This document shows, piece after piece, positions 20,283 to 47,104 of a stretch of 64,000 nt of DNA. The stretch comes from an uncultured Actinomycetes bacterium (GTDB lineage: Bacteria; Actinomycetota; Thermoleophilia; UBA2241), in contig CAVRZA010000006.1 of the NCBI GenBank assembly GCA_963725665.1, positions 224,001 to 288,000 of the forward strand, read 5' to 3'. The notes under the pieces are model-generated. The model was not told the origin of the DNA, ran no database searches, and worked only from the letters and a program-made list of their open reading frames with translations. How positions within the stretch are numbered: position 1 is the first letter of the stretch; each line of letters starts with the position of its first letter. A program made the position numbers and the translations under genes.

Positions 20283-20328
20283 CCTTGCACGGCGGAGGTC
20301 AGGGGTTCGACTCCCCTGCGGTCCACCA
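20283..20328 (+). repeat. tRNA-Ala(TGC) 3' half, att-like
   Basis: CCTTGCACGGCGGAGGTCAGGGGTTCGACTCCCCTGCGGTCCACCA; T arm, U70 and CCA present, 5' half absent. Confidence 0.85.
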
Positions 20329-20576
20329 ACCCACCCCGACGCTCGTGCGATTCTCCGTTGCCTTCCCGCGCTCTCTGACTTCTGAGACGGCCCAGAATAC
20401 CCCTCTATTTCTCAGAGCGCCTCGGAGATACCTTCCGTGGGTCACGGAAGGCCTCTCCGAAGTGAGGCGTAGGTGGATGTCAGCCCAGCGAGAGCGACAG
20501 CAAATGGCTCCGGTGTAGCGTTTGCTGCCTGGTCCGCAACGTTTGCTGATCGCATGATCGGAGAACACTGAACTCT

Positions 20577-20915
20577 ATGGTTCAGTATCCGCCCCAACTG
20601 GATAGCACCTTCGCGGCCCTCTCGGACCCGACTCGTCGTGGCATCCTCGAGCGCCTCGGGCGTGGAGACGCTTCGATCAGCGAGCTTGCCGCGACCTTCG
20701 GGATGACCCTCACGGGCGTCAAGAAACACGTACGCGTCCTTGAGGGAGCGGGGCTGGTGACCACGGAGAAGGTCGGCCGGGTGCGGTACTGCAGGCTGGG
20801 CCCGCGCCGGCTGGACGATGAGGCAACCTGGATAGCCGCCTACCGGCAGATGCTGGAAGCGAAGCTCGACCGGCTCGCCGACTTCCTCGAGCGGCAGAAA
20901 GGATCGCTGTCATGA
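20577..20915 (+). CDS. ArsR/SmtB family transcriptional regulator (SRPBCC-associated type)
   Basis: FAALSDPTRRGIL...KHVRVLEGAGLV..EKVGR. Confidence 0.9.
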   Translation: MVQYPPQLDSTFAALSDPTRRGILERLGRGDASISELAATFGMTLTGVKKHVRVLEGAGLVTTEKVGRVRYCRLGPRRLDDEATWIAAYRQMLEAKLDRLADFLERQKGSLS

Positions 20916-21415
20916 GCACACCTCTAAGAGAGCCGGAGCCGGAACCGATGGGCCTGGCGACGGTGAGCACCCCGGCGGATCGTGAGATCCGCATCGAGCG
21001 CATCTTCAACGCCCCTCGCGAGCGCGTGTGGCGCGCCTTCACCGACCCCGAGCTGCTGGCGCAGTGGTGGGGCCGCGGCAACAGGCTAGACATCGAGCGC
21101 AATGAGGTCGAGCGCGGTGGCCACTGGCGCTTCGTCGAGCACGGCCCCGAGGGCGTGTCCGGCTTCGAGGGACGCTACCGCGAGGTGACGCCGCCGGAGC
21201 GTATCGTGCAGACCTTCGAGTGGGACGGCATGCCAGGCTACGTCGCGATCAACAGCGCGACCTTCGAGGATCTCGGCGACGGCCGCACGAGGGTCGTCAC
21301 GACGTCGCTGTTCCACACGATCGAGGAGCGCGACGGCATGCTGAGCTCAGGCATGGAGCAGGGCCTCAACCAGAGCTACGCGGCCCTCGACCGACTCCTC
21401 CCAGAGCTGGCATGA
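20912..21415 (+). CDS. SRPBCC / AHSA1-like protein
   Basis: REIRIERIFNAPRERVWRAFTDP, GMEQG...LD. Confidence 0.9.
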   Translation: MSTPLREPEPEPMGLATVSTPADREIRIERIFNAPRERVWRAFTDPELLAQWWGRGNRLDIERNEVERGGHWRFVEHGPEGVSGFEGRYREVTPPERIVQTFEWDGMPGYVAINSATFEDLGDGRTRVVTTSLFHTIEERDGMLSSGMEQGLNQSYAALDRLLPELA

Positions 21416-21809
21416 GGGAACGAACGTACGGCACCGAGGGGCTCCGACTGGAGCCCCTCGGCTTTGAGGCTGCTTGTGCGGCTTGCCATCGGAGACAGCC
21501 TGGAGTACGGGAAGCATCAGCCGGCGGTGCTGGTCGCGGGGCTGGTGTTCGCCAAGTCGTAGTCCGCATGCGTGAGCGCAGCCGCCTGTTGACCAGGGCA
21601 AGCCGAGCGCCGCAGGTGGGCTTCAGTATTCGGCCGGTCGCGGCGACGAGAACGCGGCGGTGAGCGTCTGCTTCACCTTGTGGCTGCCGCACTTTTGGCA
21701 GACCATCCGTGAGAAGGCTGCATGGCGACGACCAACGGTGGCGCACGAGTGCCGTAGTCGTCGGCGCTGCTATCGTACCGTCGTCGAGCAAGAAGGGAGG
21801 AGCTACGCG

Positions 21810-22454
21810 ATGATCGACGTGGTGGTCTGGTCCGACATCGTCTGACCGTGGTGCTTTGTCGGCGTGGAGCGCTGGCGAGCAGCACTGGGACGGCTCGGCG
21901 CGGACTCCGAGGTGTTCATATGGAGATACGGCGCGTTCGAGCTCGACCCGAACGTGCCGCCCGAAGGCATGGATCGCGACGCCTACATGGAGGGCAGGTA
22001 TGACCCGGCCACGGTGAAGGCGATGGGAGAGAGGCTGGCGCAGATCGCCCGCCGGGAGGGTCTGGAGATGGCGGACCCGGCGACGCTGGTGGTCCGCCCC
22101 AACACATTCGCTGCGCACCGGCTGATGACGGCCGCCCTGGGCGCCGGCGTGGGCGTGCAGCAGGCACTCGGCGATGCGCTCTTCGCGGCCTATTGGGGCC
22201 GCAGCGAGGACATCGGCGACCGCGGTGTCCTCGCGGCGGCCGCACGGGCGGCGGGGATGGACGCCGGCGTGTCCGTCGAAGTGCTCGCCGGCGACGCGTT
22301 CGCGACCGACGTGCGCGCCCAGGAGCGCGAGGCCGCGCGGCTGGGCATCCACGCCGTACCGACCTTCGTCTTCGACGGCCGTTCCGGCGTCAGCGGCGCC
22401 CAGGACCCGGCGGTGCTGGCCCAGGTGGCGCGACGGGCGCTGAACGGCGGCTGA
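21810..22454 (+). CDS. DsbA/FrnE family oxidoreductase with in-frame UGA (U-P-W-C); predicted selenoprotein
   Basis: RBS GGGAGG, MIDVVVWSDIV*PWCFVG (TGA 21843-21845), FELDP, NTFAAHRL, GIHAVPTFVF, SGAQ; hairpin directly after UGA. Confidence 0.85.
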
Positions 22455-22519
22455 CCGGCCAGGCGCGAATCTCGAGGGGGTGTGACGGAGCAACAACCGG
22501 ATGCGACCGCTGGCGTAAG

Positions 22520-22682: not shown

Positions 22683-22725
22683 CGGTCTCCTTCCGGCTAC
22701 TCACGTTTCGTGAATGCTCATCCTC

Positions 22726-24207
22726 TAGACGCTATGGCGGTTCTTTGACCGCCGAGCTTGCTGACGAAGGCCGGACCCTGTTCGCATATCTCGGGGGTTT
22801 GTCTGGCCGGAGACGAGCTCCGGCTGACCCCATACGAAGGGAGGGTCCGACCATGACCACGTTGACATGGGTTGGGTTGGATGTCCACGCCCGCTCCGTC
22901 GAAGCCGCTGCTCTGGACGCCCTGACGGGCGAGATCAGGCGAGCTCGCTTTGGTGGCAGTGCGGAGCCGGTCGTTGAGTGGCTTGCCAGGCTGCCCGCTC
23001 CGGTGCACGCTTGCTACGAGGCGGGACCGACGGGCTACGGCCTCTACCGAGCCGCTCAGCGGGCCGGTATTGAGGTCGATGTCGTCGCCCCCAGCAAGAC
23101 GCCCCGGGCCAGTGGCGACCGCGTCAAGAGCGACCGCAAGGACGCCCAGCTGCTCGTGCGCCTGCTCTCTGCCGGCGCGCTCACCGTTGTCAGCGTGCCG
23201 CCGCCCACCTTGGAGGCCGCCCGCGACCTGGCGCGGGCTCGCGAGCAGCTGCGAGGCGACCTCATGCGCGCCCGCCACCGCGTCTCCAAGCTGCTTCTGC
23301 GTCACGGCCGCCTCTATGAGCGCCAGAGCAGCACCTGGACGCAGGCGCACCATCGCTGGCTTGCCGCCCAGCGCTTCGATGAGCCGGCGACCGAGCTCGC
23401 CTACCTCGACTCCCTGGCCGCCGTGGACGGCCTTATCGCGCGCAAGGCGGCCCTCGAGGAGCGCCTCTCGCAGCTGGCCGTGGCGCCCGAGATCTGGCCC
23501 ACGGTGGCCCGCCTGCGCGCCTTCCGCGGCATCGACACCCTCTCGGCCCTGGTGCTGCACCTGGAGGTGTGCGACTGGGGGCGCTTCGCGCGCGCCCCGC
23601 AGCTGGCCGCCTGGCTGGGCCTGGTGCCCTCGCTGTGCCAATCGGGCGAGAGCGCCACACAGGGGGCGATCACCAAGACCGGCTCGCGCTACGCCCGCCG
23701 CATCCTGGTCGAGGCCGCCTGGCACTACGCCCGCCCACCGCGCATCGGCGCCACCCTGACCAATCGCCAGCAGGGCCAGCCCGACCACGTGCTGCAGATC
23801 GCCTGGCGGGCCCAGCTCCGCCTGTGGCACCTGCAGCGGCGCCTTGCGCAGCGCGGCAAACCGGCCAACGTGGTGACGGTCGCCCTGGCACGCGAGCTGG
23901 CCTGCTTCTTGTGGGCGGCAGCCGTGGCCCCCTAAGGGCGGCTGATCGACCCCCCGTTCGGAGGGCAGGCGTCGGGCCGGCAGTCTGCCGGCATGCGCGA
24001 CCGTACTATGGGCAGCCGCAAGGCAGCACCCGTTCCTAGAGAAGCGCCAAGCCGGTGACGAAGTAGCGCACCGGGGTAGCCAACCCCCGCATATCAGATT
24101 GACCGACCGTCGTATCCGCGCCCGGCGCCTGCCATCCGAACTCCTCGCTACCCGCGTCGAACGGGAGGTTCAGCCCTGCCTGCTTGACAGGATGAGCGCC
24201 ATATCAG
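22726..24207 (+). mobile_element. IS110 family element (IS1111-like); ends approximate
   Basis: Subterminal IR TATGGCG (22733-22739) / CGCCATA (24197-24203); TTGACA at the right end; ~270 bp non-coding region after the transposase. Confidence 0.8.
22853..23935 (+). CDS. IS110 family transposase
   Basis: VGLDVH, YEAGPTG, KSDRKDA, GLVP...QSG...G.ITKTG, ARELA. Confidence 0.95.
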   Translation: MTTLTWVGLDVHARSVEAAALDALTGEIRRARFGGSAEPVVEWLARLPAPVHACYEAGPTGYGLYRAAQRAGIEVDVVAPSKTPRASGDRVKSDRKDAQLLVRLLSAGALTVVSVPPPTLEAARDLARAREQLRGDLMRARHRVSKLLLRHGRLYERQSSTWTQAHHRWLAAQRFDEPATELAYLDSLAAVDGLIARKAALEERLSQLAVAPEIWPTVARLRAFRGIDTLSALVLHLEVCDWGRFARAPQLAAWLGLVPSLCQSGESATQGAITKTGSRYARRILVEAAWHYARPPRIGATLTNRQQGQPDHVLQIAWRAQLRLWHLQRRLAQRGKPANVVTVALARELACFLWAAAVAP

Positions 24208-24284
24208 TACGACGTCGCTGTCGGGCGCCACAGCTCGACGCCGCCTCCCAGCAAGAGAGAGCTCGCGCTGCCGCTGAAGGCAGG

Positions 24285-24635: not shown

Positions 24636-25192
24636 GCTGCTCCCCTCCGTTAACAACGACGCCACCACGCAGCACCAACGCGGCGCTCCTCGCCTGCTGA
24701 CATTGCCGTACCTGCGGCCCTTCCCGTTGTGAGAGAGCCGCGAACCGTTGTGTTGGATGCAGATGTCGCTGTCGCGCGCGCCTGTGGTCCAATCGATTCG
24801 CGCGAAGGCGAGCGTGCCGGCGACGGTGGGCCGCCCACGACGGTCAGCATCTCGAGGTCGGTCTGCTTGATGAGCCTCATGACGTCGCGGAGAATCCTCA
24901 AAGGCGGAGGCCGTCGACACGGAGGAAAATGCTCGAGCAGCGGAGGCGACCTTCAACCAGCTCCGCAACATGCCCGATGCGCCAGCGACGTTCGTCAGCG
25001 TCGATGTTTGTGAGGTTGTCGGGCACGCTTAGGACTGCCGTCGGAAGCGCGCTCATCTCGCCGGCTCGTTCACTGTGACCAGGGGTGGGAAGGCATGATC
25101 TGCCGTCCCGTGTCGGCACGAATGTCGGCATTCCGGGCTTGAAGGCGAGAGGCAGCCGCCAGCCGAAAGCGCCAGGTGCAGGAGGAAAGGCT

Positions 25193-25226
25193 TGGAGGCG
25201 GCGACCGGAGTCGAACCGGTGATGGA
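25193..25226 (-). repeat. tRNA-Cys 3' end fragment (34 bp), att-like
   Basis: Identical to 18032-18065 and 58548-58581. Confidence 0.88.
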
Positions 25227-26130: not shown

Positions 26131-26937
26131 TCAGTCTTCGCAGGCTTCAGCCACGCCGAGGCCAGCGCAGATGGCGAAGAAGGCGTCCTTCAGGTCGGCG
26201 CGCTCGCCCGCGAACACCGGCACGCAACCGCGCGGGTCGGCGTCGCCGCGCCACACCGACCAGGCGAAGGCCATGCAGGCCGCCTCGCCGCACTGACCGC
26301 AGTTGGTGCCCGGCAGGCGCTTGTAGATCTCGAGCGCCGGCGGCCGGCGACGCAGTTCGAACGAGGGCGTGATCTCTCCGCGGCGCGCCCACACGTCGTT
26401 GGCGAGACAGCGCACGCGCTCGAGGCTCGCCCAGGCGTCCACGATGTCGTCTGCCTTGGCGATCCCGATGCGGTCGCGAAAGAGCGACACCATGCGGTGA
26501 CCATCCATGAAGGTGAACACCGGCATGGTGGCCACATACGAGCCATGCCCGACGTCCGCGTTCAGGTACGGCAGGACCTCGGCGACATCACCGGAGAAGT
26601 GCGCGATCAGGCGCAGGCGAGCGGAATCGGCGATGCATGTCGCCAGCACGACGATCGCGACGCGGCCGACGATGTCCTCAGCAAACGCTCGTGGCGCCGT
26701 CTCGGGGACGCCGTCCGCGGCCGGCCGGTAGTCGACCCAGCCGGCGTTCACGATATCGACGCCGCCGCTTTCCATGAACGCTGCCCTGGCCTCGGCGGTG
26801 AGCAGCAGGGCCGGAGAAGCCACGGCTGCATAGGCTGGATCGGGAGAGACCACCGAGTGCGTCGCTCCGAGCCGCGCGAGCAGCGCTACCGCGCGTTCGA
26901 ACTCGTTGCGGTCACCGAACGTGGTCAGCGTGTCCAT
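26131..26937 (-). CDS. (Fe-S)-binding protein with C-terminal putative Fe-S domain
   Basis: CIAD...VLPYLNA and LPGTNCGQCGEAACMAFA...C. Confidence 0.82.
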   Translation of the reverse strand: MDTLTTFGDRNEFERAVALLARLGATHSVVSPDPAYAAVASPALLLTAEARAAFMESGGVDIVNAGWVDYRPAADGVPETAPRAFAEDIVGRVAIVVLATCIADSARLRLIAHFSGDVAEVLPYLNADVGHGSYVATMPVFTFMDGHRMVSLFRDRIGIAKADDIVDAWASLERVRCLANDVWARRGEITPSFELRRRPPALEIYKRLPGTNCGQCGEAACMAFAWSVWRGDADPRGCVPVFAGERADLKDAFFAICAGLGVAEACED

Positions 26938-26955: not shown

Positions 26956-27696
26956 TCAAGATGCTGGTGGACCGGCGAAGCTCGTGATCAGTGACGTCGC
27001 CGCCATCTCGACGAGTAGCCGCTCGTAGTCGTACGGCACGCGCACGAACTCGACGAAGCCATCGGCCCCGTGCAGCCGTGACGGGTGGATGATCGCGTAG
27101 CACACCCGCCAGTCGCCGTCCTTGGGACGCCCTGCGCTACCGACGTTCACGAAGGTGGTCTCGCCCACCCGGCGGGCATACGGCACGTGCGTGTGCCCGA
27201 ACAGGATGGCCGGGTACGGGTATGCACGCGCCATGCGCTCCATCGCGGAGGCCGGGCGGTTCTCGAAGAGGTACTCGTTGATGCGGCGCGGACTCCCATG
27301 AACGGCGAGGATGTCGCCGCCGGGGGTCTGCAGAACGAAATGATCCTCAAGCGTGCGGAGGAACGCCTTGACCTCGTCGCTGACGGCGCTCTGTGTCCAC
27401 GCCAGGGAGGCCGCTCCCTCGGCGCGCTGCTCGTCGGTCTTGTACACGCAGCCGCAGTCGCCGGTCTCGAAGCCGATGCCCTGGTCGTAGTTGCCCATGA
27501 GCGACGGGATGCCCGAGTCGCGAACCAGCAGGGCGACCTCGTTGGGCGAGGGTCCGTAGCCGACGAGGTCGCCCAGGCACAGCGTCTGCGCGACGCCGCG
27601 GCCCTCGATATCGGCAAGGATGGCCTCGAGCGCCGGCAGATTGCCGTGGACGTCAGAGAACACGGCGAACGGCTGCTCGATCTGGATGGTCTTCAC
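26956..27696 (-). CDS. metallophosphoesterase family protein
   Basis: SDVHGN, GDLVGYG, GNYD, HGSP, GHTH, NVGS; extra DCGC motif. Confidence 0.9.
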   Translation of the reverse strand: MKTIQIEQPFAVFSDVHGNLPALEAILADIEGRGVAQTLCLGDLVGYGPSPNEVALLVRDSGIPSLMGNYDQGIGFETGDCGCVYKTDEQRAEGAASLAWTQSAVSDEVKAFLRTLEDHFVLQTPGGDILAVHGSPRRINEYLFENRPASAMERMARAYPYPAILFGHTHVPYARRVGETTFVNVGSAGRPKDGDWRVCYAIIHPSRLHGADGFVEFVRVPYDYERLLVEMAATSLITSFAGPPAS

Positions 27697-27715: not shown

Positions 27716-29464
27716 TCACGAACGCGTGGCTGACAGTGGCAATGCGCGCGCTTCAGCTCGCGTCGCTTCCGTCGCCCAGGGCTCGAGCACCACGTCGCCG
27801 GCATGCGCTACAAGCTCGCGCAGATGCGGGCCCTCGTGAGCGCGGCGTGAGAGCAACACCGGGTCGGTCACTGCGAGCGGTATCAGGCTCTGATTCACGA
27901 CCCAGGCGAACGGCTGGATGCCGGCGCGGGCCAAGTCGCCCTCGAGCTGCATCGCCTCGTGGATCGGAGTGGCCTCCGGAAGGGTGACCAGGATGACGCT
28001 AGTGAACGTCGCGTCACGCAGGCGCGGCAACAGCTTCTGAACGGCCTCGGGGCTGCCACTGGCCTTGCGTAGCACCTCGCGATGATACGCCTCGGCCGCG
28101 TCGAGGAGCAGCAGGGTGTGGCCGGTCGGCGCCGTGTCGATGACGACGAACTGCTCGCTGCCTTGAGCGACGGTCTCGGCGAAGGCCCGGAAGACCGCTA
28201 TCTCCTCCGTGCATGGTGAGCGCAGATCCTCTTCGAGCAGTGCCAGGCCTTGGGCGTCAAGACCCGGGCCGACTGAGGCGAGCACTTCCTCGCGGTAGCG
28301 CCTCGTCTCAAGTGCCGGATCGATGCGTGTCACGCGAAGCGTCTCCGGCCTCTCGCCGACCGCTTCTTCGACGTGCGCCGCGGGATCGGTCGTCGTCAGC
28401 GTGACGCTGAAGCCTCGTCGAGCCACCTCGGTCGCTATGCGAGCTGCGACAGTCGTCTTGCCGACGCCGCCTTTGCCCATCGTCATGACGACGCCCTTGC
28501 GATGAGCAGCCAGCTTCTCCACGAGGTCGGCGAGGCTGTCGCCGTGGAAGCCGTTCGAGAAGACCGCATCGGCCACGGGAGCAGCAGGAGCGTCCTTGCC
28601 CATGTTCCTCAGCGCGTCGATGCCGACGAGGTCAAAGGGCAGGAGCGGCACCTCCACGCGGGCAAGTCCGCGAAGCTGCCAAGGCATGGCCGCGAGCGCT
28701 GCCTCGCCGCGAGCCTGCATCGAGAGTGCGGTCGCATCGCTCGGGTCGGCCGCCCGGAACACCCCGTTGACGATCAGCCGGACATTGACGATCCCGAGCT
28801 GGGCCAGTTCGTCCCGCGTGCGCTCAGCCTCGCGCAGCGAGGAGCGCTCCGGTCGCGCCACCAGGACGAGGGTCGTCCGCCTTGCGTCGCGCAGCGCGGC
28901 GTTGGTCGCGGCATACAGGTGCTTCTGCGCCTCCAGTCCGACGAGCGGACCCAGACACGACGTGCCGCCCACGTTCGTCTCGATGAAGTCGGACCAGGCC
29001 GCCGGCAGCTCCAGCAGGCGCAGAGTGTGCCCGGTGGGGGCGGCGTCGAAGACCACGTAGGCGAACGCCGCGGTCGCGGCCTCGTCTCCGAGCAGCTTGG
29101 AAAACTCGTCGAAGGCGGCGATCTCTACCGTGCAGGCTCCCGAGAGCTGTTCCTCGATGCTCGCCACCGCGGCCTCCGGCAGTACGCCGCGATAGGGGCC
29201 GACCACGCGCTCACGGTAGTCGCGGGCGGCCGCCTCGGGATCGATGTTGAGGGCCGACAATCGCGGGACCCGCGGAACCTGTCTCGGCGTCCCGGAGAGT
29301 CCGACGCCGAGCACCTCGTCGAGGTTCGACGCCGGGTCGGTGCTGACCAGGAGCACACGGCTGCCGACATCAGCGAGGTCGATGGCCGTGGCGCAAGCGA
29401 TCGACGTCTTGCCGGCGCCGCCTTTGCCGGTGAAGAACAGGATCGGCGTGGGACAGTCGATCAC
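27716..29464 (-). CDS. arsA: arsenical pump-driving ATPase
   Basis: Two deviant Walker A motifs (GKGGAGKTS, GKGGVGKTT), SGACT, SCLGP, SPCTEE, DTAPTGHT. Confidence 0.95.
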   Translation of the reverse strand: MIDCPTPILFFTGKGGAGKTSIACATAIDLADVGSRVLLVSTDPASNLDEVLGVGLSGTPRQVPRVPRLSALNIDPEAAARDYRERVVGPYRGVLPEAAVASIEEQLSGACTVEIAAFDEFSKLLGDEAATAAFAYVVFDAAPTGHTLRLLELPAAWSDFIETNVGGTSCLGPLVGLEAQKHLYAATNAALRDARRTTLVLVARPERSSLREAERTRDELAQLGIVNVRLIVNGVFRAADPSDATALSMQARGEAALAAMPWQLRGLARVEVPLLPFDLVGIDALRNMGKDAPAAPVADAVFSNGFHGDSLADLVEKLAAHRKGVVMTMGKGGVGKTTVAARIATEVARRGFSVTLTTTDPAAHVEEAVGERPETLRVTRIDPALETRRYREEVLASVGPGLDAQGLALLEEDLRSPCTEEIAVFRAFAETVAQGSEQFVVIDTAPTGHTLLLLDAAEAYHREVLRKASGSPEAVQKLLPRLRDATFTSVILVTLPEATPIHEAMQLEGDLARAGIQPFAWVVNQSLIPLAVTDPVLLSRRAHEGPHLRELVAHAGDVVLEPWATEATRAEARALPLSATRS

Positions 29465-29480: not shown

Positions 29481-30116
29481 TCAGCAGCATCCGCCGGCCT
29501 TCGCCTCTGGCTGTGCCCCGCCGCAACAAGAGCTGGCCGCAGTCGCCGACGCCTGCGGCGCTTCGGCCACGGCCTCGTCGGCGTCGCCTTCGGACTTCAG
29601 GTAGCGATCGGCGAGATTGAGGATCGACTGAGCCGGCGTGTCCTTGACTCCTCGAGCGGTCGTGACCGCACATGCCATGTCCTCGCGCGAGACGCCCAGC
29701 TTCCGCGCGGCGGCGTAGTGGAACTTGAAGCAGGGCTCGCAGTTGGAGGCGATTGCAGCACCGATGGCCACGAGCTCGGCGACCGCATCAGTGAAGAGAC
29801 TCGCGGCGGGTGCTCCGACGCCAGCCCAGACGGCGAGTTCGTCGCGCGTTGGGTAGATGCCGCGGCTCTTGACGTCGCCGTCGACCTGCACCAGTGGCAG
29901 CGCCGCTTCGCCGGCATCCTCGAGGGCGCCTTTCGCGGCCGCGTTCTCGGCGAACGCGCGCGGCTCCTGGGCGAGGTTGAAGCGCTCGACCGAGACCCCC
30001 TGGTTCTTCAGCCAGTCGAGGTCGGCGGCAAAGCGCACCAGCTGCGGGTCGACCGAAGGCCCGCAGACTCCCGTTGAGCAGCACATGGCAGGGTCGAACA
30101 CTTGCACGAGCGTCAC
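29481..30116 (-). CDS. arsD: arsenite metallochaperone ArsD fused to a CMD/AhpD-like domain
   Basis: DPAMCCSTGVCGP N-terminus; C-terminal ELVAIGAAIASNCEPC..H; CC tails. Confidence 0.9.
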   Translation of the reverse strand: MTLVQVFDPAMCCSTGVCGPSVDPQLVRFAADLDWLKNQGVSVERFNLAQEPRAFAENAAAKGALEDAGEAALPLVQVDGDVKSRGIYPTRDELAVWAGVGAPAASLFTDAVAELVAIGAAIASNCEPCFKFHYAAARKLGVSREDMACAVTTARGVKDTPAQSILNLADRYLKSEGDADEAVAEAPQASATAASSCCGGAQPEAKAGGCC

Positions 30117-30190: not shown

Positions 30191-30238
30191 CAACGGTAGG
30201 GATTCTGACAGGCACGCGCTTCGAGGAGGAGTCACTCA

Positions 30239-31355: not shown

Positions 31356-31356
31356 C

Positions 31357-36899: not shown

Positions 36900-36937
36900 G
36901 CTCCCCCCAATGGCCTCGAGCGCAGCGCAGTCCGCAG

Positions 36938-37560: not shown

Positions 37561-37580
37561 AACGCCGACGTGGTGCCGAC
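37561..37580 (+). repeat. 20-bp repeat, copy 1 (AACGCCGACG-N3-TGCCGAC)
   Basis: 18/20 identical to 38924-38943. Confidence 0.65.
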
Positions 37581-37592
37581 GGGTGAGTGCTG

Positions 37593-38864: not shown

Positions 38865-38923
38865 GAGGTCTTGTTGTCGTGCCCCCAAGAGGGAAGTGGC
38901 GGATTTGCGCGCGGTCTACACGC

Positions 38924-38943
38924 AACGCCGACGCGATGCCGAC
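38924..38943 (+). repeat. 20-bp repeat, copy 2
   Basis: AACGCCGACGCGATGCCGAC. Confidence 0.65.
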
Positions 38944-39080
38944 TCACGGCCGCGCCAATCTGCCGACCTCGTTCCATGAGCATCGCGCCAGCAGGGCGGC
39001 GGAGTACCGAGGGGTCAGCCGGATCGGTTTGGCCGTCGCGCTGCAGCCCGTACGAAGCCTTCAAACGGCGTCCCGCACCC

Positions 39081-41537
39081 TCAGTCGACACACTCCGCGA
39101 CTCTGAGTCGACCGGCGATCAGGCGGCGACACTCCTCGCCCGGCTGCGGCCGGCCAAGGAGGTAGCCCTGCGCGGCGTCGCAGCCGAGCTCGCGCAAGAA
39201 GGCCAGCTGCTCCGCTGTCTCGACCCCCTCGGCCACCGCACCTAGCCCGAGGCTCTCGCTCAGACCGACGACGCCGGAGACGATCGCCCCCGCCCCCTCG
39301 TCGTCGCAAAGGCGCGCCACGAAGGAGCGGTCGATCTTGACACGGTCGATAGGCAGTCGGTGGAGACGGCTCAAAGAGGAGTAGCCCGTGCCGAAGTCAT
39401 CCAGGGCGACGGTCACGCCCATGTCGTGCAGCTCGCCCAGCAGTCTGGCAGCAAGCTGTTCGTCGGCCATGATGGCCGTCTCAGTGAGCTCCAGCTCGAG
39501 CTGTTGTGGGGCAAGGCCGCTCGCCTCTAGGGCCGCCGTGATCGAGCGCACAAGGCCGGGTCGCTGCAAGCGCCGGGCCGAGACGTTGACGGCCAGGCGC
39601 AGTGGGCGGGCCGCGAGATCCCGCCAGAGCGAAGCTTCGTGACAGGCCATCTGCAGCACCCAGTCGTCCAGCGAGGCAAGCAGGCCGATCTCTTCCGCGA
39701 CGGGGATGAACTCGCCCGCCGCGAGCAGGCCACGCGCGGGGTGCTGCCAGCGTAGGAGGGCCTCCAGGGCCACGATCTCGCCGCTGCCGAGCTCCACCAC
39801 GGGTTGGTAGTGGAGGGTGAACTCGCCCCGCTCCAGGGCGGCGCGCAGCTCATGCTCCAGTGTCAGCCGTTCGCCTGCCCGGGGGTTCATGGCAGCGTCA
39901 TAGAAGCGGCAGCTGTCGCCGCCAACCGCCTTCGCCCGGCGCATCGCCGTGTCGGCGTTCTCTAGCAGCGTCTGGGCATCGCCAGCGTCGGCCGGGTAGA
40001 AGGCGACGCCGGCACTGACCGTAGTAAAGAAGGCATGCCCCTCGACTTCCCAGGGCTCGCGGAAGGCGGCGAGGATCTTCTCCGCGACCAGGGGCACGTC
40101 CTTGGACCTACGCAGCCCGGGCATGAGGACAGCGAACTCGTCGCCGCCGGAGCGTGCCACTGTGTCGCCGGTGCGCACCGTCTCGCTCAGGCGAGCCGCA
40201 ACACGCTGCAGGAGAGCATCGGCGGCGGCCTGACCGATGGTGTCGTTGACGTCCTTGAAGCGGTCCAGGTCGACCACGATGAGCGCCACCCTGTAGCCAT
40301 CCCGCTCCGCTACGTCGATCGCCTGCCGCGCGCGGTCGCGCAGCAGGCCTCGGTTGGGCAGGCCCGTGAGCGCATCGTGGAAGGCCAGCCGCTCGATCAG
40401 GTCCTCGGCTCGCTTGCGGTCGCTAAGATCGGTGACCACAGCGATTGCGCCACTCACCTCGCGCCTCGAGCCCAGAAGCGGGGAGGCGGTGAGATTGATC
40501 CAGCGCTCCTCATCTCCGGCGCCGCGATAGGGGCCTTCGTAGGAGCCCACACCGCCGGCCAGCGCCTCGCCTATCGCCGCCGTGGCGCGCTGATCGAGCG
40601 CGCGTCGCTGGTCGAGACCGAGAAGCTCTTCCCGCGACAAGCAGGCGAGGGACGCGAAGCTCTCGTTGCAGTCACTGATGCCCAGATTCCGGTCGAAGAG
40701 GACGATGCCCAGCGGAGAGCGCTCAAAGAGTGTGCGCCGATGATGTTCGGAGGCCTTGAGCGCGGCCTTGACGTGCCTGCGCTCGGCCTCGGCCTTGCGG
40801 CGTGCGGCGATGTCGCTCTCCAGGTCGGCGGCTGTTCTCTGCAGCGCCCTCACCGTCCACTCAAGAGTGCTCGCCACCAGCCAGGCGACGATAGCGATGC
40901 CGAAGTAGGCGAGGGCAACCTGGAGCTCGAGCAGCCGCTCGCCGCCGTGGAATGCGTTCAGGGCTGCAAAAGAGGCCGCCGAGACGCCCGCCATGGGGAA
41001 GGTCGCCCAGGGCCGCAGAACGAAGGCCGCCACGACCACGGGCTCGACGAAGAGGATCTCGATGCGCTGCGGAGCGGTGTAGAGAAAGAAGACGTCCAGC
41101 CCGAACGACAGCAGGGCCAGGTGAGCCACCGCCGCCAGGGTGACGCGGCCACGACGGTTGATCAGCCAGATGGTGACGATGGCCGCGCAGAAGGCGAGGT
41201 CGGTGAGCAGGTCATAGACGGCGTTGGCGGCGCCGGCGATGAGCCATCCCCAGGTGTCGAAGACTGCGAAGCCGAGCCCCATGGGCAGCAGAGCGACGAG
41301 CAGGACGGCGAGGATCTGGCCGCGGCGACGTTGGTCTGCGTTGTCGGTCGAGACGCGTACGATCTCGGCGGCGATCAGCCTCAGGGTACGCCTCGAGACC
41401 GCCTGCCAGGGCAAAGCATCGCCGGCCAGGGCTCCGGCTCTCAATGCGTCGTTAGTCACGCACGCTCTCCCGCCATGGGGCAACTCGTCGCCCGGCGCGA
41501 GCCCTAGCGACATGCGGCCGCGCCAAGTGCAAGTCAA
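39081..41537 (-). CDS. membrane PAS-GGDEF-EAL diguanylate cyclase/phosphodiesterase
   Basis: TM region, PAS, SGGDEF, EALLRW, DDFGTGYSS, KIDRSF, EGVE; start uncertain. Confidence 0.93.
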   Translation of the reverse strand: MTCTWRGRMSLGLAPGDELPHGGRACVTNDALRAGALAGDALPWQAVSRRTLRLIAAEIVRVSTDNADQRRRGQILAVLLVALLPMGLGFAVFDTWGWLIAGAANAVYDLLTDLAFCAAIVTIWLINRRGRVTLAAVAHLALLSFGLDVFFLYTAPQRIEILFVEPVVVAAFVLRPWATFPMAGVSAASFAALNAFHGGERLLELQVALAYFGIAIVAWLVASTLEWTVRALQRTAADLESDIAARRKAEAERRHVKAALKASEHHRRTLFERSPLGIVLFDRNLGISDCNESFASLACLSREELLGLDQRRALDQRATAAIGEALAGGVGSYEGPYRGAGDEERWINLTASPLLGSRREVSGAIAVVTDLSDRKRAEDLIERLAFHDALTGLPNRGLLRDRARQAIDVAERDGYRVALIVVDLDRFKDVNDTIGQAAADALLQRVAARLSETVRTGDTVARSGGDEFAVLMPGLRRSKDVPLVAEKILAAFREPWEVEGHAFFTTVSAGVAFYPADAGDAQTLLENADTAMRRAKAVGGDSCRFYDAAMNPRAGERLTLEHELRAALERGEFTLHYQPVVELGSGEIVALEALLRWQHPARGLLAAGEFIPVAEEIGLLASLDDWVLQMACHEASLWRDLAARPLRLAVNVSARRLQRPGLVRSITAALEASGLAPQQLELELTETAIMADEQLAARLLGELHDMGVTVALDDFGTGYSSLSRLHRLPIDRVKIDRSFVARLCDDEGAGAIVSGVVGLSESLGLGAVAEGVETAEQLAFLRELGCDAAQGYLLGRPQPGEECRRLIAGRLRVAECVD

Positions 41538-41619
41538 CCCTGTCTCGGTCTCTCACATCCTCCTCCTGGTGGCTCAATCGGCTGCACGCTCGCCGGGGGG
41601 GAGGGAACGTTCGTCCAGT

Positions 41620-41736
41620 TGTGCCCCCTCTCGATCGCGCGACGCAGGTCCGACTCCAGGGAGAGACGCTCGATGGCCGCGGTATGCCTGCTCGACTCGA
41701 ACACCTTGAGGCGGCCCTTGCTGTTGGGCTTGGCCA
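41620..41736 (-). pseudogene. GGDEF-EAL linker remnant
   Basis: AK...KGRLKVFE....AAIERLSLESDLRRAIERG isolated in an intergenic region. Confidence 0.55.
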
Positions 41737-41837
41737 CGCAGCGACGAGAATCCGTGGCGGCCCGGGCCGGCTGCGTGATAGCCTTTGCGGGCCTAGGAGC
41801 AGGTAAGGGGGGCTCTTTGCGGGCCGTTGCCGAATTC

Positions 41838-43034
41838 ATGGAGATCGTCGCTGCAGCCAACGCTATGCCCGAGGTGAGGGTCATTCAGGGCGCCTCGACC
41901 GAGCCTGTGGTTACCGTCGATGGTCGCGAGGTGCTGCTCTTCTGTTCGAGCAACTACCTTGGCCTTGCCACCCACGCCGAGATCAAGCAGGCGGTCATCG
42001 ATGCGGTGGAGGAGTACGGCCTCGGAGCCAACGGCTCGCGCCTGGTCTCGGGGACCACTGACCTCCATCTCGCCCTCGAGGAAGCCACGGCAGACTACAA
42101 AGGGACGGAGGCGGCGATCGCCTTCTCCACCGGCTTCATGGCCAACACGGGTACCATCCCCGCCTTAGCCTACGTCCCCTACTTCGCCCGCATGGCGGGC
42201 TTGCCCCTGCACTCGGCGACCTCCGAGATGGCTATCCTGAGCGACGTCCTGAACCACGCCAGCGTCGTCGAAGGCTGCCGCGCGGCGCGGGCCAAGCACG
42301 TGCACTACGCCCACTGCGACCTAGACGACCTCACTGACAAGCTGCGCCACAACTGGGGCGCTCGCCTGCTCATCGTCACTGACGGCGTCTTTTCGATGGA
42401 CGGCGACATCGCCCCCCTGCCGGGCATCCTCAGCCTGGCGGAGGAGTACGGCGCCACGCTGCTGCTAGACGATGCCCACGCCACCGGTGTGCTCGGCTCA
42501 AACGGTCGCGGCACGCTGGAGCACTTCGGCCTTGAGAGCAGCGCCAACGTGCTGCAGATGGGCACCTACTCGAAATCGTTCGGCGCCCTGGGGGGGTTCG
42601 TCGGGGCCGACCGACAAACCGTGGACTACCTTCGGGTGGCGGCGGGCACCTACATGTTCTCGGGTGCGTTGCCGCCTTGCCTCGCTGCCGGCATCATCAA
42701 GTCGATGGAGGTCGCGCAGCGCGAGCCGCAGCGCCGCGTCAGGCTGTGGCGCAACCGCGACTACCTCGCCGGCAGCCTCGAGAATCTCGGCTTCGACACC
42801 CTAGGCAGCGAGACGCCCATAGTGCCCCTCTTCATCGGCGATGACGAGGCGGCGACGGCCATCTCCTGTGAGCTCTTCGAGCGCGGCATCTTCGCGCCCT
42901 CTGTCCGCTGGCCCGCCGTCGCGCGCGGCCAGAGCAGGGTGCGCATCACGCTGATGGCAAGCCACGAGCGCGGCCACCTCGACCGGCTGATTGAAGCGCT
43001 GGCCGACCTCGGTGCGAAGTACGGCGTGCTGTAG
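41838..43034 (+). CDS. class II PLP alpha-oxoamine synthase (BioF/AONS-like)
   Basis: SSNYLGLA, NHAS, TDGVFSMDGD, DDAH, GTYSK. Confidence 0.88.
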   Translation: MEIVAAANAMPEVRVIQGASTEPVVTVDGREVLLFCSSNYLGLATHAEIKQAVIDAVEEYGLGANGSRLVSGTTDLHLALEEATADYKGTEAAIAFSTGFMANTGTIPALAYVPYFARMAGLPLHSATSEMAILSDVLNHASVVEGCRAARAKHVHYAHCDLDDLTDKLRHNWGARLLIVTDGVFSMDGDIAPLPGILSLAEEYGATLLLDDAHATGVLGSNGRGTLEHFGLESSANVLQMGTYSKSFGALGGFVGADRQTVDYLRVAAGTYMFSGALPPCLAAGIIKSMEVAQREPQRRVRLWRNRDYLAGSLENLGFDTLGSETPIVPLFIGDDEAATAISCELFERGIFAPSVRWPAVARGQSRVRITLMASHERGHLDRLIEALADLGAKYGVL

Positions 43035-43623
43035 TTCGCACGACGCGTTGTCGCCGCTAGGCCGTCTCTGCAAGACGGGCGTAATCAAGCCTCTCACTTA
43101 CTGGCTGCCGCCGGGCCTTCGGCAGATGCCCTGCAGTTATCTGCGGCGTCGGCCCGGCTCGCCCTTCCGCCGATGCTCCTCTCGGCGCCGGCCTGCAAAG
43201 TCATGCCTAGAGAAGTCGCTGCCGATACTTCGCAGTGTGATGCTGGGCGAACTCAGCTTGCCGAGCGCGGTGGCGAGGGGCAGCACTCGAACGGTCGCGG
43301 CCTTGAATAACTGAGCCGGCCGAGCCTGAGGCCCGGTCTGGTCGCGCCCACTCTGACGCCGCTCGCCCGGCCACAGAGAGATAGCCCATGCCGGTCGGTC
43401 CGCCGCGTCGCCAAGGTGCCTGGGTCCGAGTCTCGCATCGGACGCCGAGTCAGCGGTTCCAGGCAGATCTCTGGCTCAGCCGACGCACCGCCGACGCTGC
43501 ACGTCCGGCGCGACGGCTGCACCTTACTGCTGCTTCTCGGTCGGCGCCGGCGCGTTGCCGACGCCAGGCCGAGATCGACGCCGGATTCCGCAGCGACGCC
43601 GAGGCGGGCAATGAAGAGCATCG

Positions 43624-44628
43624 TCAGCCAGCGCCCCCGACCGCGCCGCCTCCCTCTCCGCCGAAGAGTGGCGCACAGACCGCGGCGATGTGCGCGATGT
43701 GGCGGTGATCGGTGCCGCAGCACCCGCCGAACACGTTCAGCTGCGGCAGCCGCCACTTTAGCCGCGCGTACTCGCGGCCCAGTTCCTCGGGATCGCCCGC
43801 GTCGGGCTCAGCCAGTGCGTCGAGCTCAGCGTGGCTCAGACGCGAAGCGTTCGCCCGCAGCCCCCGGACCCTCTCCACCCACGATCCGCCGTCGGTCAGC
43901 ACGGCCTCGAAATGGCTGGGGTGCGCGCAGTTGACCATGTAGTAGCTTGGGTACGCCGAGGTGGCCTCGTCGACCTGCTCGACCGCCCCCTTCAGCGACT
44001 GGCCGGTCGCGAGCCTGCCGTCGGTCTCGACGGTGAACGAGATCGCGACTGGCATCCCCGCTCCCTCGGCCGCCGAGACGATACCCACCGCCTCCTCGGC
44101 ATTGTCGATGGTCAGGGCGCCGATCATGTCGGCGGCGGCGCCCGCAAAGGTCTCGATCTGCTCCCGGTGATAGGCCTCGGCCTCTCTCTCGGACATCGCC
44201 GAGGCCGGGTCGTAGCCGCCGCCGCGAGGACCCAGGCACCCGCTGATCACCACCTCGGTCCTCCGGTCCTCGCGCTCATCCCGGACCTGTTCGTACTCCT
44301 CCCGCACCTCCTCGAGGAGCCGGACCGCCTTCAGGTTCACGCCCCTCAGCGTCTCGCGCGTGAAGCCGAGCCTCGCCCCCCAGTCCGCGCTGGCTCGCCA
44401 CGTCGCGCTCTCGAGGACCAGCCCGGCGCGGGAGCGCCGTGCGATCTCGCCGTACGTGCTGAAGTACCTGCGCAGCGCCGCCTCGCCCTCCGGCGTCGAG
44501 AGCAGCGGGAAGACGGCGAACTCCGGTAAGTCCAGCCCTTCGTGGGCAATCATACTGGTCTCGATGCCACCGTCCGTCAGGAACAGGCGTCCGCCCAACT
44601 GCGGCAGCGCGTACCGGTACCTCGCCAT
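43624..44628 (-). CDS. homocysteine S-methyltransferase family protein
   Basis: LTDGGIET, VNCAHP, GGCCGTD. Confidence 0.9.
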   Translation of the reverse strand: MARYRYALPQLGGRLFLTDGGIETSMIAHEGLDLPEFAVFPLLSTPEGEAALRRYFSTYGEIARRSRAGLVLESATWRASADWGARLGFTRETLRGVNLKAVRLLEEVREEYEQVRDEREDRRTEVVISGCLGPRGGGYDPASAMSEREAEAYHREQIETFAGAAADMIGALTIDNAEEAVGIVSAAEGAGMPVAISFTVETDGRLATGQSLKGAVEQVDEATSAYPSYYMVNCAHPSHFEAVLTDGGSWVERVRGLRANASRLSHAELDALAEPDAGDPEELGREYARLKWRLPQLNVFGGCCGTDHRHIAHIAAVCAPLFGGEGGGAVGGAG

Positions 44629-44761
44629 GAGACCCCTCCCGCTCGCCACTACGCCCTCCCTGCTTCGGGATCCGGCTCGTTTGGACGCTCCGGAACAGGC
44701 TGCTGCGCGTGCAGCGCCAGCTCCTCTCCGAGATCGGTCGTGATCCGCTCAGAGTCCGTCC

Positions 44762-45493
44762 TCAGAAGACTTGCGTCAGCGTCTCATCGACGCCGGCGAT
44801 GAGCTGCCGCACTGCCTTGCGAGCCGGTCTGCGCTTGTTGTCGCGCATGCAGAGATCGCCCACCTCGGCGAGATGCTCGATGCGGCGCCACCGTGGCCGG
44901 GGATAGACACCAGCCTTCATGAGGGCCCGATTGAGCTTGCCTACGCCCGGCGTCTTCTTCTTGACGGTGACGTTGTGGTGGCGCGCCACTGCCAGCAGGT
45001 GGCGTTCCAGGGCGAGGTGCGCGAGCGTACCTGCCGCCCGGCGCTGGCCTCTTCTGAGAAGCGCCCGCGCGGCGGCCAGGTCGGTGTCTAAGAACCCGCC
45101 CTGTGGCTCGAGCAGCGGCAGGGCTGAGGCGAGGATAGCGAGCTGGATACCGAGCAGGTGGAGAAAGGTCTGCGTCATGCCGGGGTCAAACAGCAGCGCA
45201 AGGCCGCCTCCTTGCTCGGCCGGCGTTGGCGCGCTGCTCGGGCCGCTCAGGATGTCCGAGATGGTGGTCGGCCGTCCTTCGCCACCACGCCTGGAGCGGT
45301 AGTAGGCGGCGAACTCGCGGCGGCGCTCGGGTACGACCTGACGCACCGCGCGCAGCGCCTGCGTATACCAGCCCTGGTAGCTGTCGTTGACGACGCGCGG
45401 GTCGAGATTCTCAGCCACGATACGCTGGGACAGCTCTCTGCCCATCGCCATGAGCTTGCCTACCTCATCGCGCAGCAAGCCTCTCACCTCCAT
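44762..45493 (-). CDS. HEPN/DUF4145-like protein with degenerate active site
   Basis: YQGWYTQAL..V....PER..EF...Y; RAAG..A..ALERHL...WRRIEHLAEVGDLC. Confidence 0.55.
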   Translation of the reverse strand: MEVRGLLRDEVGKLMAMGRELSQRIVAENLDPRVVNDSYQGWYTQALRAVRQVVPERRREFAAYYRSRRGGEGRPTTISDILSGPSSAPTPAEQGGGLALLFDPGMTQTFLHLLGIQLAILASALPLLEPQGGFLDTDLAAARALLRRGQRRAAGTLAHLALERHLLAVARHHNVTVKKKTPGVGKLNRALMKAGVYPRPRWRRIEHLAEVGDLCMRDNKRRPARKAVRQLIAGVDETLTQVF

Positions 45494-45786
45494 CAGGATG
45501 CTCTCCGCTCGCAGCCAGTGTACAGGCGGCGAGGTCGGCTGGCCTTCACGGCCCAGAGTACCGCTTCGGGATTGCTGGAGGTCAGCCAGTCTTCCACGGC
45601 CAGCATCGACGCTGCACTGAGCCAGCTCCGCCGACGCTGCGCCGACCGACACTGCGCCGACCGGACGCACCACACAGGTTCGTCTCTCGCCTGAATCCCG
45701 TGCTTCCGGTGCGCCGTCCGGCGTTGCCTGACGAGCGCCCCCAGAGCGACGCTGGTTCACACCAGACACGCGTCAAGGGGAAGCGC

Positions 45787-47020
45787 ATGCAGGGCCACAT
45801 CCGCCGCCGAGGACCACACAGCTACGAGTACATCGTCGATGTGGGCACCGCAGCGGCGCAGCGCTGCCAGAGCTGCGGCAAGCGGTTCTGGGTCGAGCGT
45901 AAGCCCAAGGAGAGCTGTCCCTCCTGCGGCGGCAGGCTCATTGAGACCGAGGAGCGCCGCCGCGAGACCAAGGCCGGCTTTGCCACGCGCAAGGAGTGCC
46001 AGGCGGCCATGGCCAAGGTGCTGGTGGCGGTCGAGGAGAGAAGCTACGTCGTGCCCACCAAGGTCACCGTGCGCGAGTTCCTGCAGAAGGAGTGGCTGCC
46101 GGCCATCCGCTCCACGATCAGGCCGACGACCTACCGCTCCTACGTGCAGCACGTCGAGTGTCACATCGTGCCCCACATCGGCAGCGTGAAGCTGGAGAAG
46201 CTCAGCGGAGCGACGATCAACGCCCTCTACGCCAAGCTCGCCCAGAGCGGCAAGACGAACGGCACGAAGCGGCCTCTCGGCGCTCTCCATCCGCCACGTG
46301 CACGCCGTCCTGCACCGGGCACTCAAGGACGCCGTCAGATGGGGTCGGCTCTCGCGCAACCCCATCGAGGCCGCCGACCCACCCAGAGTGAATGGCTCTG
46401 GTCACGAGATGAGGACCTGGAGCGCCGAGCAGCTGGCGGCCTTCCTTGCGGCAACCAAAGACGATCGCCTGCACGCCCTCTGGCACCTGCTCGCCCTGAC
46501 CGGCCTGAGAAGGGGCGAGGCCCTGGCGCTCACCTGGGACGACGTCGACCTCGAGGCAGGATCGCTCTCGGTCAGACGGGCGCTGATCCCCAACGGCAGA
46601 GAGGTGGTCGTCTGCGAGCCCAAGACGGCTCGCGGACGCAGAGTGGTCGCCTTGGACCCGCAGACGATCGAGGTGCTCAAGGGCCAGGCCGCCCGTCAGC
46701 TCGTGGAGCAGGCGAAGGCCAAGAGCTGGACCGACACGGGCTTGATCTTCACGCGCGAGGACGGCGAGGCGCTGCACCCCGAGGTCGTCAGTCGCTTCTT
46801 CCGTCAGGCGGTCAAGAGAGCCGCACTGCCGACGATCCGCCTGCACGACCTGCGCCACACCCACGCCACCCTCGCCCTGCGCGCCGGCATCCATCCAAAG
46901 GTGGTCTCCGAGCGCCTCGGGCACGCCACCGTCTCCATCACCCTCGACACCTACTCGCACGCCATCCCGGCGATGCAGGAAGAGGCCGCGACGAGGATCG
47001 CCGAGCTCGTGTTCGGCTAG
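45787..47020 (+). CDS. tyrosine integrase with a Zn-ribbon insertion in the arm-binding domain; frameshift near 46270
   Basis: CQSC...CPSC, TGLRRGE, PKT, HDLRH, LGH...TLDTY. Confidence 0.9.
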
Positions 47021-47077
47021 CGCCTCGTCAAGACCGGCCCGTTGGGCATCGCGTGACACGCCCTCGCGCAGCAGCGA

Positions 47078-47104
47078 TCAGGGGTTCGAATCCCCTGCGG
47101 TCCA
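47078..47104 (+). repeat. tRNA-Ala 3' fragment (27 bp), att-like
   Basis: TCAGGGGTTCGAATCCCCTGCGGTCCA, 26/27 identical to 20299-20325; starts 58 bp after the integrase stop. Confidence 0.85.

Follow-up and report, generated by a model that had tools for sequence, protein, structure and literature searches.

We analysed a 64,000-nucleotide stretch of DNA (the window; ~68% GC) from an uncultured bacterium of the Thermoleophilia, in which hgcA and hgcB, the genes for mercury methylation, lie beside arsenic resistance genes. The source genome is labelled G000 and its contigs C1, C2 and so on, such that the window is G000:C6:224001-288000; relatives are labelled Gnnn and hgcA loci Lnnn. The distribution of hgcAB is patchy and is attributed to horizontal transfer. 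The initial annotation of the window proposed an integrative element of 26.8 kb (20283-47104), bounded by 27-bp direct repeats of a tRNA-Ala 3' end, that could mobilise hgcAB together with arsenic resistance. We picked open reading frames (ORFs) by third-position GC and then scanned them against Pfam and NCBIfam, which confirmed all six genes that had been placed between the repeats (arsD, arsA, acr3, arsR, hgcA and hgcB; Table 1).

Reading from the left repeat, we find genes for an HTH_20 regulator, an AHSA1-like protein, DsbA, an IS110 element, a cupin, a DUF6951 protein and an Fe-S protein, followed by a metallophosphoesterase, ArsA, ArsD-AhpD, ACR3, ArsR, HgcA and HgcB. To the right of hgcB come OsmC, DsrE, a further OsmC, a CDF transporter, a cytochrome c, a SHOCT protein and a second IS110 element, the nearest of its kind to hgcB at 4.2 kb. 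A PAS-GGDEF-EAL protein, an aminotransferase, a homocysteine S-methyltransferase and one unknown protein then precede the tyrosine integrase Int2. Mobile-type genes in the larger island described below comprise two integrases, three IS110 elements and one DDE transposase (Pfam).

The hgcA gene appears intact: its product scores 410 bits against NF040863 (cut-off 275) and contains GINVWCAAGKG, in keeping with the HgcA cap-helix motif N(V/I)WCA(A/G)GK. The form NVWCAAGKG is quoted for the HgcA motif in the available part of an earlier paper (PMC5255934). In hgcB, both CX2CX2CX3C motifs precede a 1-nt insertion near 33222, a base that is absent from all five aligned relatives, and the Cys-rich tail (...GVGC...SCDC) is encoded in another frame. 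As assembled, motifs and tail do not share one reading frame, which could be an assembly error; if the insertion is real, G000 may not methylate mercury despite its intact hgcA. A tblastn search with the C4 paralogue similarly recovers acr3 in two frames, and 1 nt at 30860 is absent in related contigs.

Table 1. Features of the window, in order of position.
Feature	Position	Strand	Basis
PilT/T2SSE-like ATPase gene, core left flank	5987-7108	+	Pfam T2SSE; homology to 14 relatives ends 7099-7113
Lineage-specific ~51.5-kb insertion, probable mosaic genomic island	7142-58631	.	Empty site in relatives
gltB-like glutamate synthase large-subunit gene, two frames	7302-11910	+	Pfam on 8434-11907; second frame open 7302-8798
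Int1, tyrosine integrase, ~450-nt internal deletion in catalytic domain	14322-15158	+	Pfam
tRNA-Cys(GCA) 3' fragment A, GTCGGC(A/G) arm repeats 17951-17969	18024-18075	-	
tRNA-Ala(TGC) 3' fragment 1 (left repeat; 44/44, CCA)	20285-20328	+	
IS110 element a	22725-24210	+	Pfam; 99.9% identical copy at C8:216402-217887 (blastn)
tRNA-Cys 3' fragment B, arm repeats 25112-25130, inside 26.8-kb candidate	25185-25226	-	
Fe-S protein gene beside metallophosphoesterase	26131-26937		
Metallophosphoesterase, first gene of conserved hgcAB cassette	26956-27696	-	Pfam; position conserved in related loci
arsA	27716-29464	-	NCBIfam ArsA 756 bits vs cut-off 650; Pfam
arsD-AhpD fusion	29481-30116	-	NCBIfam ArsD 128 bits vs cut-off 90; Pfam
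acr3 arsenite efflux gene, frame change ~30860-30877	30209-31360	+	NCBIfam acr3 on N-terminal piece
arsR-type regulator, directly upstream of hgcA	31357-31743	+	Pfam HTH_5; NCBIfam metalloregulator
hgcA, apparently intact, GINVWCAAGKG cap-helix motif	31740-33035	+	NCBIfam HgcA_corrinoid
hgcB, 1-nt insertion ~33222	33041-33317	+	Three-frame translation vs four relatives; DNA alignment, 5 relatives
IS110 element b	37587-38873	+	Pfam; 92% identical to C3:5012-6296 (blastn)
Int2, tyrosine integrase (zinc ribbon, SAM-like, catalytic domains), frame change ~46264	45787-47020	+	Pfam
tRNA-Ala 3' fragment 2 (right repeat; 26/27, no CCA; 84% over 47062-47104)	47078-47104	+	
DDE transposase gene	51908-52777	-	Pfam DDE_Tnp_1
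IS110 element c, abuts arm repeats of fragment C	56856-58488	+	Pfam; extent from G008 match
tRNA-Cys 3' fragment C, arm repeats 58471-58488	58540-58596	-	
Sigma-70-family factor gene, core right flank, then rlmB-like, cysS, gltX	58632-59393	-	Pfam

The outer parts of the window are two conserved blocks, with genes for PhoU-like, radical SAM, DUF5658 and NlpC/P60 proteins and a PilT-like ATPase on the left (151-7108) and for a sigma factor, an RlmB-like protein, CysS and GltX on the right (58639-63859). In DNA searches these blocks abut in 14 relatives: homology on the left extends to 7099-7113 (to 7141 in G011), and on the right it begins again at 58638-58642. The PilT-like and sigma-factor genes are likewise adjacent in G019 and G024 (gaps of ~123 and ~20 nt) and are immediate neighbours in 16/16 family relatives that have both on one contig; G005, which has a contig end at this locus, was left out of the junction count. 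Of 26 metagenome contigs whose sigma factor has at least 70% identity, 25 have a PilT-like gene 31-325 nt away, as do 23 of all 63 metagenome loci with at least 600 nt beyond the sigma-factor stop. The best sigma-factor identity in that scan is no higher than 86%, and the relatives compared include no same-genus genome. Since the flanking blocks abut in relatives, the ~51.5 kb between the PilT-like ATPase and sigma-factor genes (window ~7142-58631) is a lineage-specific insertion. The corresponding spacers of relatives are 7-183 nt long, many with hairpins, and contain a tRNA in none.

The 26.8-kb candidate is thus the inner part of a 51.5-kb insertion, and the tRNA-Ala repeats that were first taken as its ends are internal. 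The empty site whose absence the initial annotation had named as a refutation exists, and is clean, for 7142-58631, but there is none for the 26.8-kb segment (20283-47104) itself.

The repeats nevertheless hold up as described. The 27-mers at 20299-20325 and 47078-47104 are direct and identical at 26 of 27 positions, and a search tolerating up to three mismatches finds the 27-mer twice in the window, where 100 shuffles give an expectation of 0.00. Their source is the single tRNA-Ala(TGC) gene of G000, which lies on another contig (C1:120397-120472). The left repeat is longer than first noted, spanning tRNA-Ala positions 33-76 including the CCA, and together with ~18 nt of downstream flank it is 90% similar to the tRNA-Ala locus over 62 nt; the right repeat keeps only its 27 nt, with 84% identity when extended to 43 nt. 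ARAGORN and Rfam find no tRNA anywhere in the window (the Rfam search gave no match at all), so neither repeat adjoins an intact tRNA, and the earlier caveat that neither is a full tRNA stands.

Such repeats could belong to a discrete 26.8-kb element in which Int2 acts on tRNA-Ala attachment (att) sites, attL and attR, and which carries hgcAB and the ars genes and is mobilisable now or was recently. Besides the repeats being real, direct and tRNA-derived, the stop codon of Int2 lies just before the right one, as first annotated, at a distance of 57 nt. Sequence flanking the left repeat is similar to both arms of the tRNA-Ala repeats on C1, where the tRNA-Ala is followed by two more 49-nt copies (144493 and 156248) that bound two tandem segments (24 and 11.7 kb), so recombination of the tRNA-Ala type has taken place in G000. 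We still regard this element as quite improbable. The empty site gives 51.5 kb, and no intact tRNA stands at either repeat. The right repeat, a short and diverged copy without the features that flank the C1 repeats, points the same way as Int2, which is itself frameshifted. The 26.8-kb segment also encloses two IS110 elements and, at 25.2 kb, a tRNA-Cys scar, and a search for its right half (33400-47104) in 88 other family genomes returned separate pieces and no collinear copy. The C1 segments, which carry MttB methyltransferases, ABC transporter genes, an amidohydrolase and aminotransferases, have no integrase among the 10 ORFs checked of ~24, so that such repeats occur here without a cognate integrase. 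Relatives of Int2 are found convergent to tRNA-Cys or tRNA-Arg and at tRNA-Ala in none of 14 cases, as described below.

A ~100-nt intergenic repeat at 20352-20468, just past the left tRNA-Ala fragment and upstream of the HTH_20 regulator gene, is also found at five or more places on C1 (75-91% identity), one of them inside a tRNA-Ala-bounded segment. G000 encodes a tRNA-Pyl (C6:343702-343774), and MttB-family methyltransferase genes (C1:141211-144227) lie inside a tRNA-Ala-bounded segment. A candidate integrase at C1:120603-121907 was rejected, its sequence appearing to be that of a zinc-type oxidoreductase; the matching hit beside hgcB in L052 is likewise not an integrase.

Int1 and Int2 are related to one another, with 14308-14859 aligning to 45775-46325 and 14859-15134 to 46724-46999. 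Neither is intact as assembled: Int1 has lost part of its catalytic domain, and Int2 changes frame near 46264, consistent with the frameshift first noted, although this may be an assembly error (1 nt is absent at 46264 in one related contig, from public run X7). A genome-wide search for tRNA fragments identified three tRNA-Cys 3' fragments (A, B and C; Table 1) that are 91-96% identical to the native tRNA-Cys (C4:133689-133762). Compared with A over 52 nt, C has 98% identity and B 85%, and each fragment has a GTCGGC(A/G) repeat pair 60-80 nt to its left, on the integrase side. The right end of the island is marked by fragment C, which is separated from the stop codon of the sigma-factor gene by 35 nt. 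Both integrase genes, on the plus strand, are convergent to these tRNA-Cys scars, whereas Int2 and the right tRNA-Ala repeat have the same orientation.

The same geometry is seen in relatives. Across 14 loci with Int2-like genes, a tRNA-Cys is present at two, a tRNA-Arg at one and a tRNA-Ala at none. In G103, an intact convergent tRNA-Cys lies 95 nt past the integrase stop codon, and related arm repeats occupy the interval; G042 has a tRNA-Cys with arm repeats beside an integrase 3' remnant and a full integrase gene 1.6 kb off; and in G068 the partner is tRNA-Arg(CCT). Homology among Int2 copies ends at the stop codon, and more distant Int paralogues in G000 are convergent to, and ~76-126 nt from, intact tRNA-Arg, tRNA-Pro, tRNA-Leu and tRNA-Thr. 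Because the kin of Int2 sit convergent to tRNA-Cys or tRNA-Arg and never at tRNA-Ala, the pairing of Int2 with the tRNA-Ala repeats is unsupported. The arrangement is consistent with tRNA-Cys-type elements that once stood in tandem and have decayed, hgcAB being placed between scars B and C; such an array is, however, not located at a tRNA gene. No matched attL/attR pair with one member in an intact target gene marks the two ends of the island: the tRNA-Ala pair is unequal (44 versus 27 nt) and internal, while tRNA-Cys scars B and C flank hgcAB, with C truncated.

We consider it likely that hgcAB is carried by a decayed mosaic genomic island of ~51.5 kb, and that the tRNA-Ala repeats are genuine att scars but not its bounds. 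The insertion, its content, its scars and its broken genes are observed directly, as are the conservation and the varying location of the hgcAB cassette described below; we infer the order of events, the pairing of integrases with att sites and the horizontal origin. The insertion point is the short spacer of two convergent core genes, those for the PilT-like ATPase and the sigma factor. The island would have grown by serial integration via tyrosine integrases of the Int1/Int2 family, acting at an att site made up of the tRNA-Cys(GCA) 3' part and GTCGGC(A/G) arm repeats, convergent to the integrase gene. hgcAB presumably arrived within a phosphoesterase-acr3-arsR-hgcA-hgcB cassette, which lies between scars B (25.2 kb) and C (58.6 kb), and the later additions would be three unrelated IS110 elements, the DDE transposase, tRNA-Ala-type scars and segments found in relatives as ordinary parts of the chromosome.

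Judged from its sequence, the island now looks immobile, with Int1 deleted, Int2 frameshifted and no intact tRNA or matched att pair, and the initial idea that the element could still move is thus not borne out. A search of 49 island ORF translations against Pfam (E <= 0.01) identified no relaxase, coupling-protein or type IV secretion family, in agreement with the earlier remark that conjugation genes are not visible. By this measure the island is not an integrative and conjugative element, and the T2SSE-family ATPase belongs to the conserved core flank rather than to the cargo.

We also considered that C6 might be chimeric, with the 51.5 kb joined through repeats of IS110, att scars or integrases. 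The G000 assembly consists of 12 contigs with 5% estimated contamination and many dispersed repeats, and some genes are split by single-base indels. However, the sequence leaves and re-enters the PilT-sigma locus at exact gene ends and in the right orientation, as a random mis-join would not, and short near-identical pieces are present in independent public runs, though no junction is bridged. Thirteen public runs hold at most 0.13 of sampled region words as Logan contigs; in the Logan contigs of four runs the pieces are no longer than 1.06 kb and show no joint at 20.3 or 47.1 kb, and such joints as they do show have short sides matching at 90%. An assembly artefact on this scale is extremely unlikely.

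We next compared the hgcAB cassette across relatives. HgcA orthologues occur in 6/24 same-family genomes and in 0/16 genomes of other families. None of G001, G006, G011, G019 and G024 has hgcA at the PilT-sigma locus, and in G005 that junction is at a contig end. A scan of species-representative genomes gave 56 hgcA loci, the closest 21 of which were analysed; by title these are Thermoleophilia or Actinomycetota metagenome-assembled genomes (MAGs), plus one of the Deltaproteobacteria. The full order phosphoesterase-acr3-arsR-hgcA-hgcB is conserved in 11/21 Thermoleophilia-type loci, a twelfth being cut by a contig end, and in the window arsA and arsD separate the phosphoesterase gene from acr3. 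At 5/21 loci there is a tRNA no more than 2 kb from the cassette, its 3' end facing the cassette in 5/5. By a rough estimate this proximity is not clearly above chance, and the orientation alone is suggestive.

The conserved cassette is found at differing locations, several of them at tRNA 3' ends. In G005, tRNA-Ser(CGA) is followed by an intact convergent integrase of 414 aa, with hgcA 5.4 kb further on. In G019, a 6.7-kb segment containing the cassette and a DUF364 gene abuts the 3' end of tRNA-Glu(TTC), whereas in its congener G045, syntenic with G019 on both sides (83-92%), the slot is filled by 2.7 kb of unrelated sequence with an aldo-keto reductase gene among its content. The same 5.35-kb block (cassette and DUF364 gene) is present in a further congener, G044, at 88-90% identity to G019, 204 nt after tRNA-Asn(GTT), and the upstream flank is syntenic in five congeners only up to this tRNA. 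On the basis of the G019/G044 block at different tRNAs, its absence from G045, the G005 integrase and the 51.5-kb insertion described here, the hgcAB cassette may be a recurrent cargo of tRNA-linked integration slots in this Thermoleophilia-type family, a tentative proposal that we put somewhat short of even. Comparative sequence data make such slots a credible, though unproven, route for the hgcAB-ars cassette within the family. The suggestion that hgcAB moves by a horizontal vehicle thus stands in so far as the cassette occupies differing loci; no integrase was found at the G019 and G044 cassette sites.

Two further observations concern these loci. Contigs of one MAG titled as Thermoleophilia contain three hgcA loci (L041, L043 and L051), each with a phosphoesterase-acr3-arsR cassette and with HgcA 76%, 77% and 85% identical to that of the window. 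L039, binned as Deltaproteobacteria, has a Thermoleophilia-type cassette of the same gene order with HgcA 75% identical, and represents either a binning error or an inter-phylum transfer.

Several points weigh against a decayed island built by tRNA-targeting integration. The left end (7142-7400) has no recognisable att scar and the site has no tRNA in relatives, which leaves the entry of DNA into the PilT-sigma spacer unexplained. At 11/14 Int2-like loci there is no tRNA within ~2 kb; in the window, 11.5 kb separates Int2 from scar C and 2.9 kb separates Int1 from scar A, unlike the adjacency seen in G103. The initial annotation had proposed looking for this integrase family near hgcA elsewhere, and no Int1/Int2-like gene is within 10 kb of hgcA at any of the 21 related loci. 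Distal att repeats were not found for the tRNA-Ser of G005, the tRNA-Glu of G019 or the tRNA-Asn of G044. The single-base breaks in acr3, hgcB and Int2 may be assembly errors rather than decay, because in a rough control 2/38 orthologue-like genes elsewhere in G000 are also split. The compositional shift that was expected at the repeats is absent, the profile being flat in GC at 20.3 and 47.1 kb. Part of the island, moreover, is by comparison with relatives ordinary chromosomal DNA of the family that has been relocated, since the blocks in question are chromosomal in relatives and single copy in G000. The HGD dehydratase operon (15.1-17.9 kb) sits elsewhere in seven relatives, and the pieces found in the 88 family genomes include many Int2 copies, the methyltransferase gene alone and the GGDEF-EAL/aminotransferase pair, adjacent in seven genomes; G000 has no second copy of the GGDEF-EAL/aminotransferase and HGD dehydratase blocks. 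Finally, approximately unbiased (AU) tests do not reject species groupings for HgcA (p = 0.097, 0.25 and 0.22), and vertical descent with relocation is not rejected by, and would be compatible with, the HgcA tree and these tests.

Three of these points (the flat composition, the chromosomal blocks with no second copy in G000 and the AU tests), and also the modules shared with another island-like region at the C2 end and C3 start (an 89% identical integrase, a 92% identical IS110 and tRNA-Cys scars), would be expected if the site were a recombination hotspot, in which hgcAB and most of the cargo are native, vertically inherited and moved about via att scars, integrase remnants and insertion sequences (IS), with no transfer vehicle. 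Phylogenetic results are divided on this explanation. A tree of six core proteins recovers genera and places G000 as sister to g4 plus g2. In a 29-row HgcA tree, all Thermoleophilia-type sequences group together (support 99) and G000 joins G011 and L036 (support 87), while a careful 10-row tree is poorly resolved within the family. HgcA of G000 and G011 is 85.9% identical as compared with 78-81% among the congeners G011, G001 and G019; the six core proteins show the reverse pattern, at 74% versus 84-87%, and the contrast is suggestive. The comparison of HgcA and host trees that had been proposed as a check thus gives host groupings that are not rejected on one side and reversed identities on the other. 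Also against a hotspot of native genes are the presence of hgcA in only 6/24 family genomes, the location of the cassette beside a different tRNA gene in each of two congeners, with the syntenic slot of a third lacking it, and the tRNA-Cys scars, which we take as mutually closer (A-C 98%, A-B 85%) than they are to the host tRNA-Cys (91-96%), as element-borne copies would be. On balance we find the hotspot explanation unlikely and retain the decayed island.

The IS110 elements contribute to the mosaic make-up of this island. They have the DEDD transposase and Transposase_20 domains of their family, and element a has a 99.9% identical second copy. An IS110 composite transposon around hgcAB was considered and rejected: the proteins of a, b and c are mutually only 27-39% identical, unlike the near-identical flanking pair of such a transposon. 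Toward the left end of the island, DNA matches to the gltB-like gene in G021 and G013 span 7388-11718.

As the closest known systems we take tRNA-targeting islands with tyrosine integrases, for example those of the P4 type and actinomycete integrative elements of the pSAM2 kind. The likeness extends to an integrase with arm-binding, SAM-like and catalytic domains, an att core formed by the tRNA 3' part with arm-type repeats, tandem scars, an empty site in relatives and an integrase convergent to the tRNA in the intact relatives G103 and G005. In contrast to these systems, the window island is in the terminator spacer of two protein genes rather than at a tRNA gene, is scarred at one end only, has two defective integrases and interleaves two tRNA specificities.

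The association of hgcAB with ars genes, and hgcA-positive Thermoleophilia, have been reported previously (McDaniel et al. 2020, PMC7438021), and ArsR control of hgcAB has been described together with arsenic as a possible driver of transfer (Gionfriddo et al. 2022, bioRxiv 10.1101/2022.10.17.512643). In the available parts of these two papers, the loci resemble that of the window in having arsR directly upstream of hgcA and acr3 adjacent. Co-selection by arsenic, as initially suggested, is thus no new idea, the hgcAB-ars linkage having been described in those parts. The available part of the 2020 survey, the one survey to have searched for a vehicle, reports no hgcA close to insertion sequences or transposases (PMC7438021), unlike the window, where the insertion around hgcAB also contains two integrases, three IS110 elements and a DDE transposase. 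Islands or integrases are mentioned in two other papers with no link to hgcAB in the parts available (PMC5255934, PMC4914508), and full-text searches of main texts, with supplements outside their scope, returned no paper placing hgcAB on a defined island.

The window thus offers a useful lead on the movement of hgcAB but does not demonstrate a mobile element. The exact empty site of the insertion and the different tRNA-adjacent slots of the cassette provide testable boundaries for the gain and loss of hgcAB, and hgcAB, acr3 and arsR form a defined linked unit on which arsenic selection could act. If the cassette is indeed a recurrent cargo of tRNA-linked slots, these islands would be the first concrete class of vehicle for hgcAB transfer.

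Related arrangements are present elsewhere in G000. Window 18031-18139 is uninterrupted, but its counterpart on C3 is split, at the equivalent of 18064/18065, by an IS110 copy (C3:4944-6323; 92% to 37587-38873); this split point is the edge of tRNA-Cys scar A. Element c lies directly against the arm repeats of scar C, and att-site sequences may be targets of these IS110 elements. At C1:468624-552014, three tRNA-Arg 3' fragments of 45-49 nt (495675, 503854 and 551970) lie downstream of tRNA-Arg(CCT), and more than 25 fragments of the 3' ends of Int1/Int2-type integrase genes are found on one strand; the region resembles decayed integrative elements arrayed in tandem on a very large scale. Finally, a tRNA-Phe near the end of C2 (C2:578775-593061) and a 46-nt tRNA-Phe 3' fragment at C3:35244 (C3:1-35289) suggest an island of ~50 kb across the contig break, which shares with the window island an integrase (89% at the nucleotide level), an IS110 (92%) and tRNA-Cys scars.

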